IMG/VR virus record: IMGVR_UViG_3300037963_004147
Span: 1-64,000 of that record
Reading direction: 5' to 3' (one strand)
DNA: 64,000 nucleotides
Source of the DNA: a virus
In this document: positions 4,647-19,196 of the stretch, piece after piece
How the letters are laid out: each line of letters opens with the position of its first letter
Position numbering within the stretch: the first letter of the stretch is position 1
Position numbers and translations under genes: made by a program
The notes under the pieces: generated by a model
What the model was told of the DNA's origin: nothing
Seen by the model: the letters and a program-made list of their open reading frames with translations, nothing else
Database searches by the model: none

Positions 4647-4694
4647 TATGATAGTATTTCAATTTTGAATATTAATTTTTAAAACCAACATAAA

Positions 4695-6002
4695 ATGAGT
4701 GAAGAAAATAACACTGTGGAAAGTAAAGTAGAAACTGTAGATGTAGATATTGATGCAATATTTGGTGCAACAACTGATAGTGTTGTAGTACCAGAAGAAA
4801 AGAAGCCCAATGTCATGAGCCGTCCATCAACTGAGGTTGATATGAACTTTACTGAACCTACAAAAAATACAGAAACTATTGATAATACTAATGATTCAGA
4901 AACTCCAGAAGCAGAGAAAGGCGGAGAAGAACCTACAGCATCTGAAACACAAGTTAAAGCTGAAGGTAATGATATCATTGATACCTTTACAGAAATTGAT
5001 GAAGAATTAGATGAGACAGAAGAAGTTAAATCTGAAACTAAGAAAACAGAAACAAGAGGTAGAAAAAAAATAGAAGGTATATCAGATGTTTTTAATTCTT
5101 TAATTAAGAAAGAAAAAGTATTTGCTTTTGAAGATGATAAGGGATTTGAAGAATATTCAGCTAAAGACTGGGAAGAACTTATTGAAGCAAATATTGAAGA
5201 AGCTAAAAATCAAGTTAGACGTGAAACACCAAAGCAATTTTTTGAAGCATTACCTAATGAATTAAAGGTGGCTGCTAGATATGTTGCTGATGGAGGAACA
5301 GATTTAAAAGGATTATTTAGAACTTTAGCTCAAGCTGAAGAAACTTATGATTTAGACGTTAGTACTACCAAGGGTCAAGAAGATATTATAATGCAATATC
5401 TATCTGCCACAGGTTATGGTACTCAAGAAGAAATCAACGAAGAAATTGAAATTTGGAAGGATTTAGGTAAACTAGAACAACAAGCTTCCAAGTTTAAACC
5501 AAAATTGGATAAGATGCAAGAAAAAGTTGTAGCTCAAAAATTGCAAGAGCAAGAAATGAAGCAGAAGCAACAAGAGAAAGCATCTAAACAATACATGCAC
5601 AATGTTTATGAAACTTTAAAAGGTGGAGCAATTGGTGATCTAAAGTTAGATAAAAGAACACAGTCATTATTATATAATGGTTTGGTTCAACCAGCATATC
5701 CATCTGTAAGTGGAAAAAACACTAACCTATTAGGTCATTTATTAGAAAAGTATCAATTCCAGGAGCCAAATTATCAATTGATAAGTGAAGCTCTATGGTT
5801 ACTTGCAGATCCGAAAGGATATAAAAGTAAGATAATGGAAAAAGGTGCCAAAGCAAGTGTAGAGAAAACAGTTAGAAAATTAAAAACTGAACAAGCAAAT
5901 AGAAGCGGTGCTTCTATGGGAGTTCAGGAAACTGAAGCTAAAAGAACTGCTCCTGCTAAGAAAAAACTAAAAAGAGCTAATAATTTTTTCAAACGGATTT
6001 AA
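4695..6002 (+). CDS. Conserved crAss-like protein between portal and MCP, putative scaffolding protein
   Basis: Very acidic disordered N-terminus, helical/coiled-coil body, basic C-terminus; position directly upstream of MCP. Confidence 0.65.
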   Translation: MSEENNTVESKVETVDVDIDAIFGATTDSVVVPEEKKPNVMSRPSTEVDMNFTEPTKNTETIDNTNDSETPEAEKGGEEPTASETQVKAEGNDIIDTFTEIDEELDETEEVKSETKKTETRGRKKIEGISDVFNSLIKKEKVFAFEDDKGFEEYSAKDWEELIEANIEEAKNQVRRETPKQFFEALPNELKVAARYVADGGTDLKGLFRTLAQAEETYDLDVSTTKGQEDIIMQYLSATGYGTQEEINEEIEIWKDLGKLEQQASKFKPKLDKMQEKVVAQKLQEQEMKQKQQEKASKQYMHNVYETLKGGAIGDLKLDKRTQSLLYNGLVQPAYPSVSGKNTNLLGHLLEKYQFQEPNYQLISEALWLLADPKGYKSKIMEKGAKASVEKTVRKLKTEQANRSGASMGVQETEAKRTAPAKKKLKRANNFFKRI

Positions 6003-6044: not shown

Positions 6045-7664
6045 ATGGCAACTCCAGTATTAAACAATGGAATTTTCCTTAGAGATACAGCTTATAAAGC
6101 TAGTTCTCACATTGATTCTTATCACTTGTCTCAGATGCTTGGTAGCTCTGAGCCTATGGATATGGGTCCAGTTGATTTGTGGGCAATGACTCAAAAAGTT
6201 GAAATGCCTCTTTATCAAATGGCTTCATTCGGTGGTAAGAACACAATTATGGTAGACAATGCTCGCGGTGAGTATAAGTGGCAAACACCTATTGCACAAG
6301 ATCTTCCTTTTGTAGTTTCAAACATTGAAGCTTCAACTGATCTTGGTGGTGATGGTACTACTTTTAGAATTAAACTTTCTAAGAGAGCTTTTGGTCACGG
6401 TGACATTATTACCTATGATAAGTATAATGGTTTAGAACTTTATATCACTGCTGAGGATATTATTCCTGCAGGTGATGGTTTTATCTACACTTGTCAATTA
6501 GTAAATAACAATAGTGCTGCTACGTTAGACGCTACTAAGTATCTAGTTTCTGGAACTAAGTACTTTAGAAAAGGTTCTGCACGTGGTGAGTACGGTGAAA
6601 GATTTTCTGACATTGAGACAGGATCTGGTTTCCGTGAGTTCTACAACTTTGTAGGAGGAGCTGAAGCACACGTTCACTATTCTATTTCTTCTAGAGCTGA
6701 TTTGATGCTTAAAGGTGGAATGAATGCTGATGGTACTGTTCCTGTAACAGAGATCTGGAGAAACTTTAACCAAGATCCTAACAATCCTTCTGTTTCTTCT
6801 ATTGAAGAATTAGTAGCTAATATGGGTAAAGCAGGTGCTAGAGAAGCATTTGAAAGTGGTCAATTATCAAGAACCTTCCTTACAAATATGGAAGCTGCAC
6901 ATCTTTCTAAGATTGCAAATGATATTGAAACTTACCTAATGTGGGGTAAAGGTGGTAGAGTTAAACAAGACGGTCCAGATGATATTAGATTATCTGTTGG
7001 TTTATGGTCACAGTTGGATAACTCATTTAAAAGAGTATACAACAAGTCATCATTTACACTTGACATGTTTAAATCTGAGCTTTACAACTTCTACCAAGGA
7101 AAAGTTGAGTTCAAAGGGCCAGACCCACAGAGACAACTTATTGTACAAACAGGTATTGGAGGAATGCAATTAATTAACAAAGCTATTGCTGATGAAGTAT
7201 ATGGTTCTGGATTAGTTCAAAATGCTTCTGATATTGGTGCAGTAACTGGACAGGGTATGGATCTTGACTTTGGTTTTGCTTATACAAGCTTTACTATTCC
7301 TTTCCTTGCTAATGTTAAGTTTGTACTTAACCCAGCATTTGATAACTTACACACTAATGATATTGAGAATCCATTAATTGATGGAAGACCATTGAGCTCA
7401 TTTAGCTTTATCATTTTTGATGTAACTGATGGAGGAAATGACAACATTCACTTGTTGAAGCTTTCTTGGGATAATCAACTTAAATGGTTCTACCAAAATG
7501 GTACAATGGATTATATGGGAAGAACGCAAGGATTTGCTTCTACCGGACAATTCAATGGATATAGAGTTTATATGACTCAGTCCATGCCTGCTGTTTGGGT
7601 TAAGGATCCAACTAAAGTTCTAAAAATTGTAATGAGAAACCCAGTTACGGGAGGATCATTCTAA
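6045..7664 (+). CDS. Major capsid protein (crAss-like, HK97 fold)
   Basis: 539 aa, strongly biased codon usage, followed by a strong terminator. Position in the terL-portal-scaffold-MCP block; VKFVLNPAFD and VWVKDPTK segments resemble crAss-like MCPs. Confidence 0.9.
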   Translation: MATPVLNNGIFLRDTAYKASSHIDSYHLSQMLGSSEPMDMGPVDLWAMTQKVEMPLYQMASFGGKNTIMVDNARGEYKWQTPIAQDLPFVVSNIEASTDLGGDGTTFRIKLSKRAFGHGDIITYDKYNGLELYITAEDIIPAGDGFIYTCQLVNNNSAATLDATKYLVSGTKYFRKGSARGEYGERFSDIETGSGFREFYNFVGGAEAHVHYSISSRADLMLKGGMNADGTVPVTEIWRNFNQDPNNPSVSSIEELVANMGKAGAREAFESGQLSRTFLTNMEAAHLSKIANDIETYLMWGKGGRVKQDGPDDIRLSVGLWSQLDNSFKRVYNKSSFTLDMFKSELYNFYQGKVEFKGPDPQRQLIVQTGIGGMQLINKAIADEVYGSGLVQNASDIGAVTGQGMDLDFGFAYTSFTIPFLANVKFVLNPAFDNLHTNDIENPLIDGRPLSSFSFIIFDVTDGGNDNIHLLKLSWDNQLKWFYQNGTMDYMGRTQGFASTGQFNGYRVYMTQSMPAVWVKDPTKVLKIVMRNPVTGGSF

Positions 7665-7672
7665 ATTAATAT

Positions 7673-7702
7673 AAGGGGGAGGTTATCCTCCCCTTTTTTT
7701 TT
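7673..7702 (+). terminator. Rho-independent terminator after MCP
   Basis: GGGGAGG-TTAT-CCTCCCC followed by T9. Confidence 0.88.
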
Positions 7703-7722
7703 AACTTATAAAATTAGAACAA

Positions 7723-8406
7723 ATGAAATTCCTAAAAAAAATAATTAAACAAAAACCTGATAAATATATCAAGGATGCACCAGGAGCAAATCTTGCAACA
7801 ATTGCTTCTGTAAACAATGTGGTTGATGAAAGCAACGCAGCACTAGATTTAGTTGCTGATAAGGTAATTATACCTGCAGGAAATTCATCTGCAGATTTAC
7901 CTCCAATAACTCTTAAAAAAACTTCAACATCTTTTACTTATCCGGATGGAACTAAGTTGCAGGGATATTCAATACTTGGTTCTGCTTTGTTAAGTGGACA
8001 AAGTACATATAGTATACCTCAGTGTACACTAACTATTCCTTGTGTAGTAGCTCCAAATCTTGAGCCAGATTCTGATGACGAAGAATTATGTTTAGCTGGA
8101 TTTTATATTGCATATAAAACAACTGGTGCAGTAAAATGTATGGTAAATGATGGTGAAGATGAACCTACTGAATTTGAAATAGTAAATGATTTTTCATCAG
8201 GTGCAGATTTAAGAAGAGAATCTGATGGTCAAGCTCAACAAACAGCATACGTAGGTCTTTTCCTTGAAGAGACTGAAGCAGGATCTGGTATTTATACTGT
8301 AAGTCTTGATGTAGAAGCTGGTGCAGGTGCTGGACCTTCATCTGGTGAAGTATTTTATCAGTTTGAATTCTTAGTGTATGATGATATTACACCTTCAATT
8401 ACTTAA
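7723..8406 (+). CDS. Hypothetical protein, possibly capsid-associated (beta-rich acidic C-terminal domain)
   Basis: 227-aa ORF with A-rich leader directly after MCP; no recognisable catalytic motif. Confidence 0.6.
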   Translation: MKFLKKIIKQKPDKYIKDAPGANLATIASVNNVVDESNAALDLVADKVIIPAGNSSADLPPITLKKTSTSFTYPDGTKLQGYSILGSALLSGQSTYSIPQCTLTIPCVVAPNLEPDSDDEELCLAGFYIAYKTTGAVKCMVNDGEDEPTEFEIVNDFSSGADLRRESDGQAQQTAYVGLFLEETEAGSGIYTVSLDVEAGAGAGPSSGEVFYQFEFLVYDDITPSIT

Positions 8407-8425
8407 CTTATAAAAATTAGAAATT

Positions 8426-9036: not shown

Positions 9037-9127
9037 TTATTACTCAAATAACTATTGCCGGTTTAATTACCGGCATTAGAAATATTAATTAATAAGTGTA
9101 CATAATTATGTACTTTTGAGTAAATAA
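9037..9127 (+). promoter_or_regulatory. Candidate structured RNA leader (multi-stem junction)
   Basis: Outer stem TACTCAAA(9041-9048)/TTTGAGTA(9115-9122) encloses TGCCGGT-TTAATT-ACCGGCA (9056-9075) and the palindromes TATTAATTAATA (9083-9094) and GTACATAATTATGTAC (9098-9113). Confidence 0.55.
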
Positions 9128-9153
9128 TAATTAATAATTAAAACCAAACAAAA

Positions 9154-10170
9154 ATGGAAGAATACACAATTGTAGAAAAATACCAACAAGGTAAAGACAA
9201 AACTATTGCAATAAGACCTTACTTTAACGCTGATAAAGAAAATATGGGTCTTGAAAATTATGGAATGTCACTTCATGATGGAGTATGGCATGAAGAAAGT
9301 TTAGCATGTTTAGAAATGAATGGTGTTAAAAGATATGTTACAGGACTAAATGAATTTGCACCAGAAGTTAAAAGATTATCTCCTGGTGAAAAAGAGATTA
9401 AAGTTAAAGAGATTAGGGGTGTTGTTGCACAACTAGAAGCTGAACTTGCAGCTAATATTATTGATCCAGAAGATAAAGACTTTTGGAACAAGGTTAATTT
9501 ACTTAAACCAGATAATGATAAATTTTGGTCAAAAATTAGTTTACGTTGTGGTAATGATCCTGTGTATTTAGATCCTGCTAAAGACCCGTATGATTTAATT
9601 AAATTATATGCAATTAATGCGGGTGGATTTTCAATGATATCTAGATCACTTAAAGATGCTAAAAAGAAACCAAATCCAACTAAATTTTATTTAGATCAGC
9701 TAGAAGAAAGTGTATCTACAAGAACTGAATATAAAAAGCTTAAGAATAAAGCTCTTGTTGAACTAGAAAAACTTTATGATAAATCATCTACAAAACTAAT
9801 GTATGTTGCAAAAGTTGTTGATGCAGATAGTGTTCAATATACAGAGACTTTATCTAAAGAGATCATATATGAAAACATGGATATGTTTATAAATGGTGAA
9901 GGTACTGAATCTAATAGAAAAAGAGCAGCTCAGTCATTTATTGATGCTTCTAAATCAAAAATGGAAGATTTAAAAATTAGAGCTTTAGTTAAAGATGCAA
10001 TGTTCTATAGATTTATTTTAGCAAAACCATCAGGATGGATTGAAACATTAGATAGTGGTATTAGATTAGGAAAAGTTCCTAGTGAAGTACTAACTTTCTT
10101 AAAGAATCCAGAACATGATGAAATATTAAAAACATTAATGGATAAGGTTGAACCTTATTGGAAATCATAA
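9154..10170 (+). CDS. Conserved crAss-like protein downstream of MCP (gene-75-like, function unknown)
   Basis: 338 aa; RYVTGL, FW..I.L and LD...PYD segments plus gene order. Confidence 0.65.
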   Translation: MEEYTIVEKYQQGKDKTIAIRPYFNADKENMGLENYGMSLHDGVWHEESLACLEMNGVKRYVTGLNEFAPEVKRLSPGEKEIKVKEIRGVVAQLEAELAANIIDPEDKDFWNKVNLLKPDNDKFWSKISLRCGNDPVYLDPAKDPYDLIKLYAINAGGFSMISRSLKDAKKKPNPTKFYLDQLEESVSTRTEYKKLKNKALVELEKLYDKSSTKLMYVAKVVDADSVQYTETLSKEIIYENMDMFINGEGTESNRKRAAQSFIDASKSKMEDLKIRALVKDAMFYRFILAKPSGWIETLDSGIRLGKVPSEVLTFLKNPEHDEILKTLMDKVEPYWKS

Positions 10171-10916: not shown

Positions 10917-10964
10917 GTGTATTACAAATACAAACAATTATATATAACTTTTAAATTTTAAAAA

Positions 10965-12596: not shown

Positions 12597-12623
12597 TAAT
12601 GTATATCTATAAAATTATATTCT

Positions 12624-13178: not shown

Positions 13179-13199
13179 AAAAATTTTAAAACCAAATAT

Positions 13200-13367
13200 A
13201 TGAACTGTGTTTATTGCGGAAAAGGATTTAGCTGCGGTTGCCAGAGAACAAGAACACCAGATGGTAAACCCATACATAAGTCTTGTTTAACAGCATATAA
13301 TAATAGCAAAAAAGCAAAAGTGGATCCTTTAACGGCAAAGATTAATAAAGCAAAAAGAAACTTTTAA
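13200..13367 (+). CDS. Small Cys-rich basic protein, 55 aa (absent from the ORF track)
   Basis: MNCVYCGKGFSCGCQRTRTPDGKPIHKSCLTAYNNSKKAKVDPLTAKINKAKRNF*. Fills the gap exactly, its stop abuts the GTG of 13368, and it has a TTAAAACCAA leader. Confidence 0.8.
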   Translation: MNCVYCGKGFSCGCQRTRTPDGKPIHKSCLTAYNNSKKAKVDPLTAKINKAKRNF

Positions 13368-13595
13368 GTGGATAGTAATAAAAAAATAGGGTTAGAAACA
13401 GAATTTGCTAATGCATCTTACCAAGATTTTAAAGCAAAAAGGTTTGGATTAACACCATGTTGTTATTCTGATTTACAATTAATATCTCTTAAAAAAGAGA
13501 TTTGTGATTGGGAAGAATTGCAAGCAGAAGTTTTAACCCCAACAGAAGGTCTAGTTACAAAAATTGTAGACTGTGATACACTTACTGCTAGTTAG
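13368..13595 (+). CDS. Small hypothetical protein (Cys-containing)
   Basis: 75 aa, GTG start directly after the preceding stop; RFGLTPCC motif. Confidence 0.6.
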   Translation: MDSNKKIGLETEFANASYQDFKAKRFGLTPCCYSDLQLISLKKEICDWEELQAEVLTPTEGLVTKIVDCDTLTAS

Positions 13596-13615
13596 GATAA
13601 ATGAATAAAAATGAT

Positions 13616-13624
13616 TATATTATA
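13616..13624 (+). promoter_or_regulatory. Candidate late promoter core TATATTATA
   Basis: Core of the repeated motif just before ORF 13636; TTAG 20 nt upstream. Confidence 0.4.
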
Positions 13625-13635
13625 TATAGAGAATT

Positions 13636-16600: not shown

Positions 16601-17283
16601 ATGGTTTATCAACAATCCTTTATCCAATGGCTGTTGCAAACTCTGCAGGTGCTGATACTGCAAATTTATTGCAAATGATGGCTGCATATACATCTGAAAC
16701 AATTCCTGCTGCTAAATATGGTATTAAAACTTTACCAGATCTTACTAACTATTTATTACAAGGTCTTTCTCCAGGTAATCCATATGCAGGAGCACCTACT
16801 ATAGTTGGTAACTTTACATCTCAATTATATAGAACAGAAGATGGTGGAGGTGCAACAATATCTGGAATGCTTGCATTACTAAGTCAAGAAAAGAATAATA
16901 AAATTCTAAATGAAATAAATACAAATAGCAATGCTCAATTTAAAGAAACATTGACAAGAGCTATAAAGAGTTGTGGTGATGCATTTACTGCAGATCCTTT
17001 ACCAACATCAAATTCATATTTAGTAGAATGGTGTAAAAAGACATCAGCCGATAGATATAATGTTACTATACCTGGACATAGTTGTGGTACATTAGCTAAC
17101 GGAACTGTTTTAAAATTAACAAATAATTCAGGAGGAGATTATTCTCCACCAGGTGCTGATGTTTGGCCAGATACAGAAGAACACTGCTTTACAATAATTG
17201 ATAACTGTGATTCAACTGCAGCTTTAGGTACTACTACCATGGGTACTATTCATGTAGATTGTGATGATTGTCTAACGCCTTAA
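13636..17283 (+). CDS. Large Cys-rich virion protein, putative tail fibre/spike
   Basis: 1215 aa; Cys-rich N-terminal repeats, coiled coil (INQNITNLENRVAILE), FN3/Ig-like beta domains, C-terminal CDDC. Confidence 0.6.
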   Translation: MIPTNNNTPSPCNPISSNCVIWQGPDISCINLCNGDTVSDVVAALAEKLCEIIDQACACDPDLTGLELKCALPQAGMPDTFVETLQAIIDYMCNITPGSSDVVVVELPPCLRYTDNLGNIVSQLPLTDWADLVNNKICDIINAISIINQNITNLENRVAILESCVLPCTPAQAPDFDIIPQCILPSTTAVPVSTLVLAIEIAFCNLRDVVGTVTEVTSAIAAQCLTPTMSSLSGSGANYGSLPGWIMTPNTLAGSHINQWIAICDLYTAVSDIQQNCCDDSGCDGVDFKYSYILEDSNGDGIPDALKLGFSGSTIPVGYADCGGTTTITVTDAAGQTVSQNAIITTLASSGAYVSIALGTLNVLSSLTVSIPFCVTNGTNQCADTQSLIIPGNVPCPTLIVTQAATDIITSWTSPISAGSTFEIDAVDSLSGVSLGSATINALGGMNTYNHTFAGASPGSTYIISLNIIVNGAITACPPVTITMNGDLCSDLEVTSLSVGAPSPTDRMYLGLYDDGVTVSRYYYDYSTFGFEVIKREDIAGSVPCESVSLTNQSMNTGTGEITVTVTYNDASPVSCELSYSSDGVTYSAPATGADGVRTLATGITSGSVYLKAQQTCTGPIEGLPTIMRYDFNTGTWMVLQSPADCQSSHILAACPSGQEVSRLTLECGLNTYTTPGASAQSWWFYVGKRTVGPGIMRYIYASWDNATSTVRSVVECCACPTFILSDKIQALCGEAGDAVEITFPYVLGGGIPDFTLGPGPVLGGVVQDATQKNKFTYTSAGVATSDNYADTFQVQLQPTIPGTEGCGVYQLTAQVGMVNCGVTLKYTAQPIFAFINTNSFTPTEGGMIKQGLIQLAADWAVDFGYSGSVYFIPMDETNWLGYSQKIVEDGSSYVNPVDPLWDAMKSLPSSWTGGASIYKNAACVIIFSNGSEGVYHDATIAAGFGAGVTAQPTSQYKADYDAHLDMLNGTALSAWAIGQGISSPQFPDGLSTILYPMAVANSAGADTANLLQMMAAYTSETIPAAKYGIKTLPDLTNYLLQGLSPGNPYAGAPTIVGNFTSQLYRTEDGGGATISGMLALLSQEKNNKILNEINTNSNAQFKETLTRAIKSCGDAFTADPLPTSNSYLVEWCKKTSADRYNVTIPGHSCGTLANGTVLKLTNNSGGDYSPPGADVWPDTEEHCFTIIDNCDSTAALGTTTMGTIHVDCDDCLTP

Positions 17284-17293
17284 AAATATAAAA

Positions 17294-17854
17294 ATGAATT
17301 GTAATTGTACTAAATGTAGTCCTAGTAAACCTTGCGGATGTAATGATACAGCGTTAACTAATCCATGTACTTATACTGATTGTAGTATAGGTAGTGAAAG
17401 ATGTTCTGATATTCAATGTGCAGAATGTGTAAGTTATTGTGGTACAACATTTCAAATTGGAGGTTTAACGGAAGTAATAAGAATAGAAAAAGGAGAAAGA
17501 TTAGATTCAATTATTCAAAAATTTGCTCTTATGTTAAGTCAAGGTGTAGGAGCTTGTACTGCAAATGATGTTAATCATGCACCTTATAATGTATATGCTA
17601 CAACAATTACTAATAGTAGTATTACTGTTGTTTGGAATGGTGAATCAGCTGTTTCAGCAGGAATTAATGTATACTATGATGATGGTATTACTGGTTATTT
17701 ATTAGCAAATGCAAGTCCAATTGCACTAGGTGTAAATACATTTACTATTCCACTATTAACACCTTCAACAGATTATACTATAAAGCTAACCTCAATTGAT
17801 GGTCTTGGAGGATCTTGCGATAGTGTTGAGCTTATTGTTAGTACAATAGCATAA
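17294..17854 (+). CDS. Cys-rich protein with C-terminal fibronectin type III domain
   Basis: APYNV...ITNSSITVVW...Y...FTIPLLTPSTDYTIKL is an FN3 pattern; the N-terminus shares a CV(S/I)(Y/W)xG...G motif with ORF 13636. Confidence 0.7.
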   Translation: MNCNCTKCSPSKPCGCNDTALTNPCTYTDCSIGSERCSDIQCAECVSYCGTTFQIGGLTEVIRIEKGERLDSIIQKFALMLSQGVGACTANDVNHAPYNVYATTITNSSITVVWNGESAVSAGINVYYDDGITGYLLANASPIALGVNTFTIPLLTPSTDYTIKLTSIDGLGGSCDSVELIVSTIA

Positions 17855-17857
17855 AAT

Positions 17858-17934
17858 TAAACAGAGGTGATAATTTGTTGGTTTTTTATTGCCAAGTTTG
17901 GGAAGCTCAGTAAGTACTACTGGGCTTCTTTTTT
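17858..17934 (+). ncRNA. Candidate small RNA / structured 3' UTR with antisense loop
   Basis: Stem GGTGATAA(17866-17873)/TTATTGCC(17886-17893) presents loop TTTGTTGGTTTT and is followed by a terminator hairpin. The loop is complementary to the AAAACCAA(C/A)A leaders at 4681, 9140 and 13188. Confidence 0.45.
17902..17934 (+). terminator. Rho-independent terminator
   Basis: GAAGCTCAGTA-AGTAC-TACTGGGCTTC followed by T6. Confidence 0.85.
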
Positions 17935-17978
17935 CTATAATAAAATTTTCTTAAATTAGTGAGCCTTAAATTTTTAAC

Positions 17979-19196
17979 ATGAATAATAAAGAAATTAGAG
18001 AAAAAGTGAAAGAATCTTTTAGCTGGAAGAAAAATTCAGCAATATGTGCTAAAAGGGTTGGCATTTCACTTTCAAAATATCTTAGGATTAAACAAGAACT
18101 TAAGACAGAATCAAAAAATTTAAAAAGAGCAAAACAAGGTAGAACTGAAAGCTTTAATTTAGAAAAAGGTGAAGGTACTATATCAACTCTAGCTGCAAAT
18201 GAACCTAAAAATCCAAAGGAGATAATTAAACTTTTAAAGATAGATACATCCAAATGGAAGTTATCTCAATACTGGAATAAACAAATGGGAGATCATTGGA
18301 GAGTATCTGCTCTTGTTTCAAAACTTAAAGAATCTGAACAAAGTCATATTGAAGAATTATTAAAAAAATGGAAACCTAAAAAACACAATATACCAAATTT
18401 GTCTAGACCAAAAGGTTATTCTTTATCACCAGATAGGGATCAAGTTTGTGGTATTATGTCTTTACAAGATATCCATTTTGGAAAAGAAGGTAATGAAACT
18501 ATAGATAAAGACTTTGAAGATACAGTAATGGACCTTATAAAAAGAGGAACAGCTTCACATAATATTGAAAACTTATATTTTGTAGTTGGAGGTGATTTAA
18601 TTAATATGGATACCTTTTCAGGTACAACTACTAGCGGTACACCATTAGATAACTGTTCAACAGCTACAGAAGCATATATACAAGCGTTTGACGCAATGCA
18701 TTGGGCTATCCAACTTATTATGCAGCATGTAGGTCATTTAACTGTGGTGTATATACCGGGTAATCATGATAGATTATCATCATTTCATTTAGTACATGCT
18801 TTATCTAAATCAATATCTGATCATCCTAATATAACATGGGATATTGAATATGCAGAAAGAAAGGTTCATGTATGGCATGATAACTTTAATGCTTTTGAAC
18901 ACGGAGATGCTACAAGCAAAAATACAGCTGTTGTGTATGCAACAGAGTTTGCTAATGAGTGGGGTTCTACAACAAATAGAACATTATTCACAGGGCATTT
19001 TCATCAAAATAAAAAAATAGAATATATAACAACTAGTGAGACTGCAGGTTTTATTCATAAAACTTTACCCAGTTTATCTAAAACAGATTATTACCATTAT
19101 CATAAAAAGTATGTAGGTAATAGAAGATCAGGTAAGTTAGAATTGCAATCACCTACTAAAGGTAATATTTGTGAACTAACTTATTTGGCAGATTAA
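17979..19196 (+). CDS. Calcineurin-like metallophosphoesterase with N-terminal HTH-like region
   Basis: All five motifs in order: DIHFG, GGDLIN, PGNHD, EHGD, TGHFH. Confidence 0.88.
   Translation: MNNKEIREKVKESFSWKKNSAICAKRVGISLSKYLRIKQELKTESKNLKRAKQGRTESFNLEKGEGTISTLAANEPKNPKEIIKLLKIDTSKWKLSQYWNKQMGDHWRVSALVSKLKESEQSHIEELLKKWKPKKHNIPNLSRPKGYSLSPDRDQVCGIMSLQDIHFGKEGNETIDKDFEDTVMDLIKRGTASHNIENLYFVVGGDLINMDTFSGTTTSGTPLDNCSTATEAYIQAFDAMHWAIQLIMQHVGHLTVVYIPGNHDRLSSFHLVHALSKSISDHPNITWDIEYAERKVHVWHDNFNAFEHGDATSKNTAVVYATEFANEWGSTTNRTLFTGHFHQNKKIEYITTSETAGFIHKTLPSLSKTDYYHYHKKYVGNRRSGKLELQSPTKGNICELTYLAD

Follow-up and report, generated by a model that had tools for sequence, protein, structure and literature searches.

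What is the role of a hairpin that stands between the end of a tail-module gene and an intrinsic terminator, and that displays a loop complementary to sequences just ahead of the start codons of other late genes? We examined this question in a phage contig of 114,909 bp with a GC content of 31%; the window referred to throughout is its first 64 kb. Judged by the match of the ORF at 6045-7664 to Pfam Crass_capsid (6e-30), the phage is crAss-like, and giant co-oriented ORFs are present in its genome. Few known phages are as abundant as the crAss-like phages, whose post-transcriptional control is essentially unexplored. The comparative analysis presented below suggests that the hairpin probably belongs to a phage-made RNA that controls the translation of three assembly genes.

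The hairpin and terminator downstream of the fn3 gene

The features of the locus and of the complementary sites are collected in Table 1. The first-pass annotation of this DNA had described a stem with two G-U pairs and a 12-nt loop followed by an intrinsic terminator, and had taken the G-U pairs as the mark of an RNA made from the + strand. When checked on the sequence, the stem and loop were as described: GGTGATAA (17866-17873) pairs with TTATTGCC (17886-17893) over 8 bp, including the two G-U pairs, and encloses the loop TTTGTTGGTTTT at 17874-17885. The strand assignment agrees with the predicted folding energies, which are −24.7 kcal/mol (z −3.7) for the + strand vs −13.9 kcal/mol for the − strand, and the unpaired probability predicted for the seed loop is 0.66-0.99. 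The terminator was likewise recovered in a scan of the + strand (1 found vs 0.1 expected). It consists of a 13-pair stem and a U-tract, and thus presents the GC-rich hairpin and following U-tract on the transcribed strand that define an intrinsic terminator. A covariance model, R1, was built for the hairpin element and used to search the genome and its relatives; in this genome the element is present as a single copy.

Table 1. Coordinates of the features in the window
Feature	Position	Strand	Description
Parental gene	17294..17854	+	186 aa; Cys-rich N-terminus and fn3 domain (Pfam fn3, E 2.8e-5; ORF list)
Gap	17855-17978		between the fn3 gene (17294-17854) and the exonuclease-like gene (17979-19196)
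AACAG box	17860..17864	+	5′ of the hairpin; partial complementarity to the loop's 5′ half; CAACAA in most relatives
Seed hairpin	17866..17893	+	8-bp stem, 12-nt loop UUUGUUGGUUUU (fold and covariation)
Linker	17894..17899	+	AAGTTT in the window, AAACGTTGG in most relatives; GTTG almost invariant (MAFFT alignment)
Intrinsic terminator	17900..17935	+	GC-rich hairpin 17900-17930, T-run to 17935; 3′ end of the putative RNA
Box 1	4681..4690	+	AAAACCAACA; −14..−5 relative to the scaffold-like gene 4695-6002 (435 aa), which immediately precedes the capsid gene
Box 2	9140..9152	+	AAAACCAAACAAA; −14..−2 of the 338-aa gene 9154-10170
Box 3	13188..13195	+	AAAACCAA; −12..−5 of the 55-aa Cys-rich gene 13200-13367

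The stop codon of the fn3 gene (17852-17854) lies 12 nt upstream of the first nucleotide of the hairpin, at 17866, and homologues of this gene in the relatives likewise have the hairpin element 3′ of them. The only promoter box type screened, the Bacteroidota-type −7 box TAnnTTTG, was absent from the 120 nt upstream of the hairpin, including in all of the 68 relatives aligned below (0/68), and no sigma-70-like site was found on the + strand. Since neither a host-type −7 box nor a sigma-70-like site was present, we rejected the idea that the hairpin RNA has its own promoter. The absence of a host-type promoter within 120 nt in any relative instead indicates that the RNA is the tail of the fn3-gene message. 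Together with the upstream stop codon and the shared terminator, this bears out the proposal that the locus has the layout of a 3′UTR-derived RNA. In metatranscriptomes, one marine run represented 6% of the sampled words, and four runs yielded sparse, scattered contigs (for example 18188-18565), which are uninformative over 17858-17935 and cannot display RNA ends.

Conservation and covariation among relatives

The homologous gap was taken from 104 IMG/VR contigs by way of its two flanking proteins (38-76% identity). The hairpin-terminator layout is the same in all 104 contigs, and is kept in about 90 IMG/VR relatives. The carriers form a large group of crAss-like phages, marine and uncultured, in which the hairpin lies at the end of the tail-gene message. 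In a MAFFT alignment of the 68 distinct gap sequences, TTTGTTGG in the loop is invariant (68/68), and the stem contains 53 compensatory cells vs 19 after shuffling (0/500), a signal that collapses in slid controls. Two of the stem pairs alternate between GU, GC and AU, one of them being GU in 34 sequences, GC in 21 and AU in 13. Such alternation implies that pairing takes place only in the + strand RNA.

A second alignment, comprising 76 copies, was fitted to the structure by the model and is hence biased towards it; read with this bias in mind, 97% of its cells are paired, double changes are found in 17/17 pairs, and compensatory cells number 340 vs 63 after shuffling. In the same alignment, double changes occur in 7/7 pairs of the seed stem, and all 10 modelled pairs of the terminator co-vary in the relatives. 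Of the 76 copies, 60 share an identical 12-nt loop, and 47 versions of the stem are found, as anticipated by the suggestion that a conserved loop would be found on a co-varying stem. Distant lineages matched by R1 have wholly different stems around the same loop, and across relatives the terminator always adjoins the hairpin. On this comparative evidence, the hairpin and the terminator are real, conserved RNA structures, and the loop is judged to be constrained in its sequence and not in pairing.

Within 16 nt 5′ of the stem, AACA(A/G) or CAACA is present in 64 of the 68 relatives. This box can pair with UUGUU(G) of the loop, with a linker of 1-3 nt and with 6 nt left in the loop, a spacing that would allow an H-type pseudoknot or masking of the seed. 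The energy of the box-loop duplex is −5.5 vs −4.5 for shuffled flanks, and the most distant lineage has kept the loop without the box. The AACAG box of the window could cover the seed, supply one strand of a pseudoknot or indicate where the RNA is processed.

Further sequence features were observed close to the hairpin in particular lineages. In one distant relative, L304 (reverse strand), a second copy of the loop sequence, TTTTGTTGGTTTT, is located about 40 nt 5′ of the hairpin. In a distant lineage of low GC content (L239, L240, L267, L280, L282, L284 and L301), a conserved block, TAACTAWTTTRRTTATAAAKAAT, directly follows the terminator, where it may serve the following gene as promoter or leader. 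In many of the relatives L017-L096, C-K-P-I-E is encoded by TGTAAACCAATAGAA in the last part of the fn3 gene, approximately 45-50 nt upstream of the hairpin, which puts a copy of the AAACCAA box in cis near the hairpin; the lineage of the window has CDSVE in place of CKPIE and is without the AAACCAA copy in cis.

Complementary boxes before three late genes

Sites complementary to the loop had been placed at 4681, 9140 and 13188, starting 14, 14 and 12 nt before ATG codons, and all of these positions were correct. Within this genome, 11 of 117 start regions pair with the loop at ≤ −8 kcal/mol; the proportion among CDS windows is 5.7%, and a result as good was obtained with 3% of shuffled seeds (p ~0.03). 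The box enrichment on this genome alone is modest, and only about 3-6 of its 117 genes bear a box. Much more comes from the comparative data, which put the match between loop and box far beyond chance. Boxes were counted uniformly as an exact complement of the loop, of at least 8 nt, located within −30..+3 of the start. Such a complement is present in 96% of 27 distinct 4695-like leaders (85% when at least 10 nt are demanded), in 89% of 46 9154-like leaders and in 79% of 13200-like leaders, vs 0% in four control families, namely the exonuclease-like, 184-aa, 326-aa and capsid genes (n=25-55 each). The first-pass annotation had regarded the shared position of the sites before start codons as its main argument, and this enrichment substantiates it.

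Almost every distinct 4695-like leader carries AAAACCAAC(A) at about −14..−5, 9154-like genes carry AAAAACCAA(A/T), and the 13200-like gene is preceded by AAAACCAA(C/T) in 38 of 44 distinct relatives. The resulting profile, AAAA-CCAA-(C/T)-A-A-A, is the complement of the loop column by column; the CC of the box is located 8-12 nt before the ATG, and where the fifth position is U, it forms a G.U pair with the loop. The box of the 13200-like genes fills a stop-to-start spacer of merely 12-25 nt, and an inter-cistronic spacer of this length argues that the box works at the level of the mRNA rather than as a promoter. Upstream of box 2, a Bacteroidota −7 promoter box, TACTTTTG, is found at 9111-9118, and a perfect TAnnTTTG occurs at −54..−36 in 45 of 50 9154-like upstream regions (L154-L233). 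This arrangement, with the promoter box upstream, places the 9154-like box in the 5′UTR; the presence of TAnnTTTG before these genes also speaks for a host among the Bacteroidota, and for the host polymerase as the enzyme that transcribes this late gene.

A fourth candidate site, AAACCAACAAA, precedes the minus-strand 63-aa gene 66055-66246 and has the best energy here (−12.3). It is not conserved, as any AACCAA within 520 nt is found in just 15 of 61 relatives, and the site was rejected as a target. It is probably a chance or lineage-specific match and provides an internal negative control. In searches with blastn and tblastn against 50,697 phage records, no close cultured relative was found. 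The nearest match among these records is Leptolyngbya phage Lbo-JY46, whose capsid is 28% identical, and in which there was no convincing match to the hairpin model and no box.

Many other genes share a different leader element, (C)TTATAAAA or TTTAAAT, at about −20..−10 before the ATG. In the window, sites of this type lie at 7700-7722, 8406-8425, 10945-10964, 12600-12623, 17275-17293 and 17955-17978, and the element is also found before minus-strand genes at 76-106 kb of the genome. The AAAACCAA boxes look like a subclass of this leader element (TTAAAA plus CCAA).

With regard to the proteins encoded downstream of the boxes, the gene at 4695 had been labelled as a scaffold. Its position directly before the capsid gene, the long helices of its product and an acidic, disordered N-terminus all agree with this label, which we nevertheless consider only plausible. 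The products of 4695, 9154 and 13200 gave no match in sequence searches of PHROGs, Pfam or PDB. AlphaFold models of the target proteins were weak (pLDDT 64 and 59), and the sole Foldseek match obtained with them was to a RecA C-terminal-like segment of about 60 residues (E about 0.5). Two other observations concern neighbouring regions of the genome. The approximately 268 nt that follow the 55-aa Cys-rich ORF (13368-13635) contain no ORF of at least 40 aa on either strand. A 326-aa protein encoded on the minus strand at 64953-65933 of the genome (L425:954-1934) shows 80-94% identity across at least 382 viral contigs and is conserved far beyond the structural genes of the same phages.

The near-invariance of the loop leaves few cases in which a change in the loop can be compared with a change in the boxes. 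G011 has a G-to-U change in its loop, UUUUUUGGUUUUU, and CCAAAA replaces CCAAC in each of its three boxes, thereby extending the complementarity to 11-13 nt. The sister clade G019-G022 carries the hairpin GUCACA-GAAGGUUGGUUUA-UGUGRC together with the terminator, and its 9154-like boxes read UAAACCAAC(C/A), taking the form UAAACCAACC (two genomes, 10/10 complementary) or UAAACCAACA. A U that answers the new 3′ A of the loop is present in 4/4 of these 9154-like boxes vs 3/45 in the main clade, and C is present in 2/4 of the 9154-like boxes of the sister clade. The 4695-like boxes of this clade retain AAAACC in 3/4 cases, and the box on the small Cys gene has been lost. G013 has the standard loop yet carries CCAAA boxes. 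The loop variant UUGGUUGGUUUU of L097/G001 forms a G.U pair with one box and mismatches with two; being accommodated by 1/3 boxes, this change is neutral, and we rejected it as compensatory. Covariation between seed and target is thus observed in G011 and in G019-G022 and not in G001 or G013. Independent supportive co-change events number about two, the variant clades being few and mutually related. The paired core GGUU/AACC is broken in no lineage examined.

A candidate riboregulator and its alternatives

From the evidence presented thus far, the best explanation, to which we assign a probability of roughly 0.6, is that the element is a base-pairing riboregulator in a 3′UTR that occludes the ribosome-landing region of three late mRNAs. 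The RNA would be carried at the 3′ end of the fn3-gene transcript of the tail module, and would act either within this mRNA or as a species of about 75-80 nt released from it. The hairpin would hold the loop UUUGUUGGUUUU open and the terminator would supply a stable 3′ end. The loop is predicted to pair over 8-12 nt with the box AAAACCAA(C/U)AA, which lies 8-12 nt before the AUG of 4695, 9154 and 13200, at the Shine-Dalgarno position and inside the ribosome footprint. Pairing would span about −14 to −4 of the targets, with a block to 30S loading as its most likely result, so that the output of 4695, 9154 and 13200 would be turned down as tail-module transcripts accumulate. Translational repression is favoured because GibS and FopS, trans-acting sRNAs of Bacteroides thetaiotaomicron, repress by pairing of this kind at start regions with the aid of neither Hfq nor ProQ (PMC7366714, PMC11697453); the start-region window in Bacteroidota is discussed in PMC11697453. 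We infer that the RNA is transcribed and processed, that it pairs with its targets in vivo, and that the outcome is repression rather than activation. The predicted net gain from pairing is just −4 to −6.6 kcal/mol, the pairing being short and AU-rich, and the weak stem of the window is predicted to open. Pairing may depend on a helper protein or on high concentrations of the RNA, and the box could also have an independent role, such as that of a translation enhancer. The original reading of the locus as a regulatory RNA for a subset of late genes is supported, and it passed all of the in silico refutation tests that were run.

Several alternatives have to be weighed against this riboregulator. 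The loop might be read by a phage or host RNA-binding protein, the hairpin being an operator that acts, for example, on mRNA stability, and its complementarity to the boxes being incidental. Hairpins recognised by proteins are likewise marked by a loop that does not vary on a stem that does, the GUUG of the linker repeats part of the loop, and the pairing energies are weak. We nevertheless regard this explanation as unlikely, since it does not account for an exact complement that three orthologous leaders carry at one position and that 0/4 control families have, nor for the boxes that follow the loop changes in G011 and the sister clade. An element acting in cis at the 3′ end would be in keeping with a hairpin that always adjoins the terminator, and with the loop-complementary AACA(A/G) of 64/68 relatives at a spacing that suits an H-type pseudoknot. 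Such an element could pair with the AACA box in a pseudoknot, set terminator efficiency, permit nut- or put-like read-through into the exonuclease-like gene, or stabilise the 3′ end of the tail mRNA. However, the distant lineage retains the loop but has no AACA box, the box gains little energy relative to shuffles, and such an element does not account for the conserved complementary boxes at a distance of 4-13 kb, all of which makes a purely local role quite improbable.

Bacteroidota rarely use Shine-Dalgarno pairing in translation initiation, and this favours the idea that the AAAACCAA box is itself a translation signal private to the phage, placed at the Shine-Dalgarno position, with the loop activating the boxed leaders or acting as a decoy for whatever reads the box. 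The SD-like spacing of 8-12 nt and the fact that the box fills the entire stop-to-start spacer of the 13200-like genes point in the same direction. Since only about 3-6 of 117 genes are boxed, translation in this phage does not depend on the box, and canonical pairing at start regions is usually repressive; we therefore think it doubtful that the box works in this way. A more specific form of the idea, in which the box is a private SD-like landing tag and the hairpin RNA a dedicated trans reader (adaptor or decoy) that switches the tagged class as a block, is hardly more than speculative; if true, tag and reader would amount to a phage-owned translation code beside that of the host. A motif in double-stranded DNA, either the site of a regulator or a promoter element, with the copy at 17874-17885 being the same site inverted, would explain the reverse complementarity of loop and box. 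It seems very improbable indeed, as a DNA site needs no co-varying arms around a fixed centre and the G-U pairs function in + strand RNA only; moreover, the box lies within the 12-25-nt inter-cistronic spacer of 13200-like genes and downstream of the promoter box in 9154-like genes.

The proposed riboregulator has partial counterparts among known RNAs. In the c4 antisense repressor of P1/P7, loops pair with the ribosome-binding region and translation is blocked. Like c4 RNA and the related P4 CI RNA, the present element would be a phage sRNA acting in trans on the phage's own mRNA, with an exposed loop that blocks a ribosome-binding region. However, c4 is cut from an operon leader, acts on one operon (icd-ant) and serves lysogeny and immunity in enterobacteria that use SD pairing, whereas the hairpin described here lies in a late 3′UTR of a lytic-type crAss-like phage and has one loop for three dispersed morphogenesis genes. 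CpxQ, SroC, DapZ and MicL are 3′UTR-derived sRNAs that share the terminator of the parental mRNA. As in these RNAs, the element follows a stop codon, uses the terminator of the mRNA itself, has a conserved seed and lacks a nearby promoter; in contrast to it, they are chromosomal, Hfq-dependent and released by RNase E, and their seeds are usually single-stranded 5′ stretches and not loops. Lambda nut (boxA/boxB) and HK022 put are antitermination RNAs that act in cis on RNA polymerase. They too are phage hairpins with a sequence-constrained loop just upstream of a terminator in an operon, but they require no complementary sites at other loci, whereas here the boxes are conserved and partly co-varying.

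Closer to the presumed host, the GibS and FopS RNAs are AT-rich; FopS-14 is derived from a 3′UTR, and one FopS copy is found in a phage (PMC7366714, PMC11697453). The element resembles them in its Bacteroidota setting, its AT-richness and its predicted pairing at start regions, and differs in that their seeds are long single-stranded 5′ stretches and their targets belong to host metabolism, whereas the seed here is a loop. Homology to the GibS/FopS family, with its single-stranded 5′ seed R1 plus terminator, was not found, and there was no Rfam family match at the gathering cut-off, with noise alone at E <= 10. The Rfam covariance model for C4 likewise gave no match, even at E <= 10, and a full-text literature search returned no description of such an element in crAss-like phages. 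By analogy, the hairpin functionally resembles c4 RNA and the 3′UTR-derived sRNAs and is a member of neither the c4 nor the GibS/FopS family.

Overall, these findings define a testable regulon in terms of sequence: a single loop, a single box and three genes, shared by hundreds of marine phage genomes. If confirmed, they would mean that lytic phages balance head-assembly factors against tail-gene expression by riboregulation, and that they do so in a phylum that initiates translation without SD pairing and lacks both Hfq and ProQ. Confirmation would also yield a compact and portable repressor-operator pair for Bacteroidota genetics.
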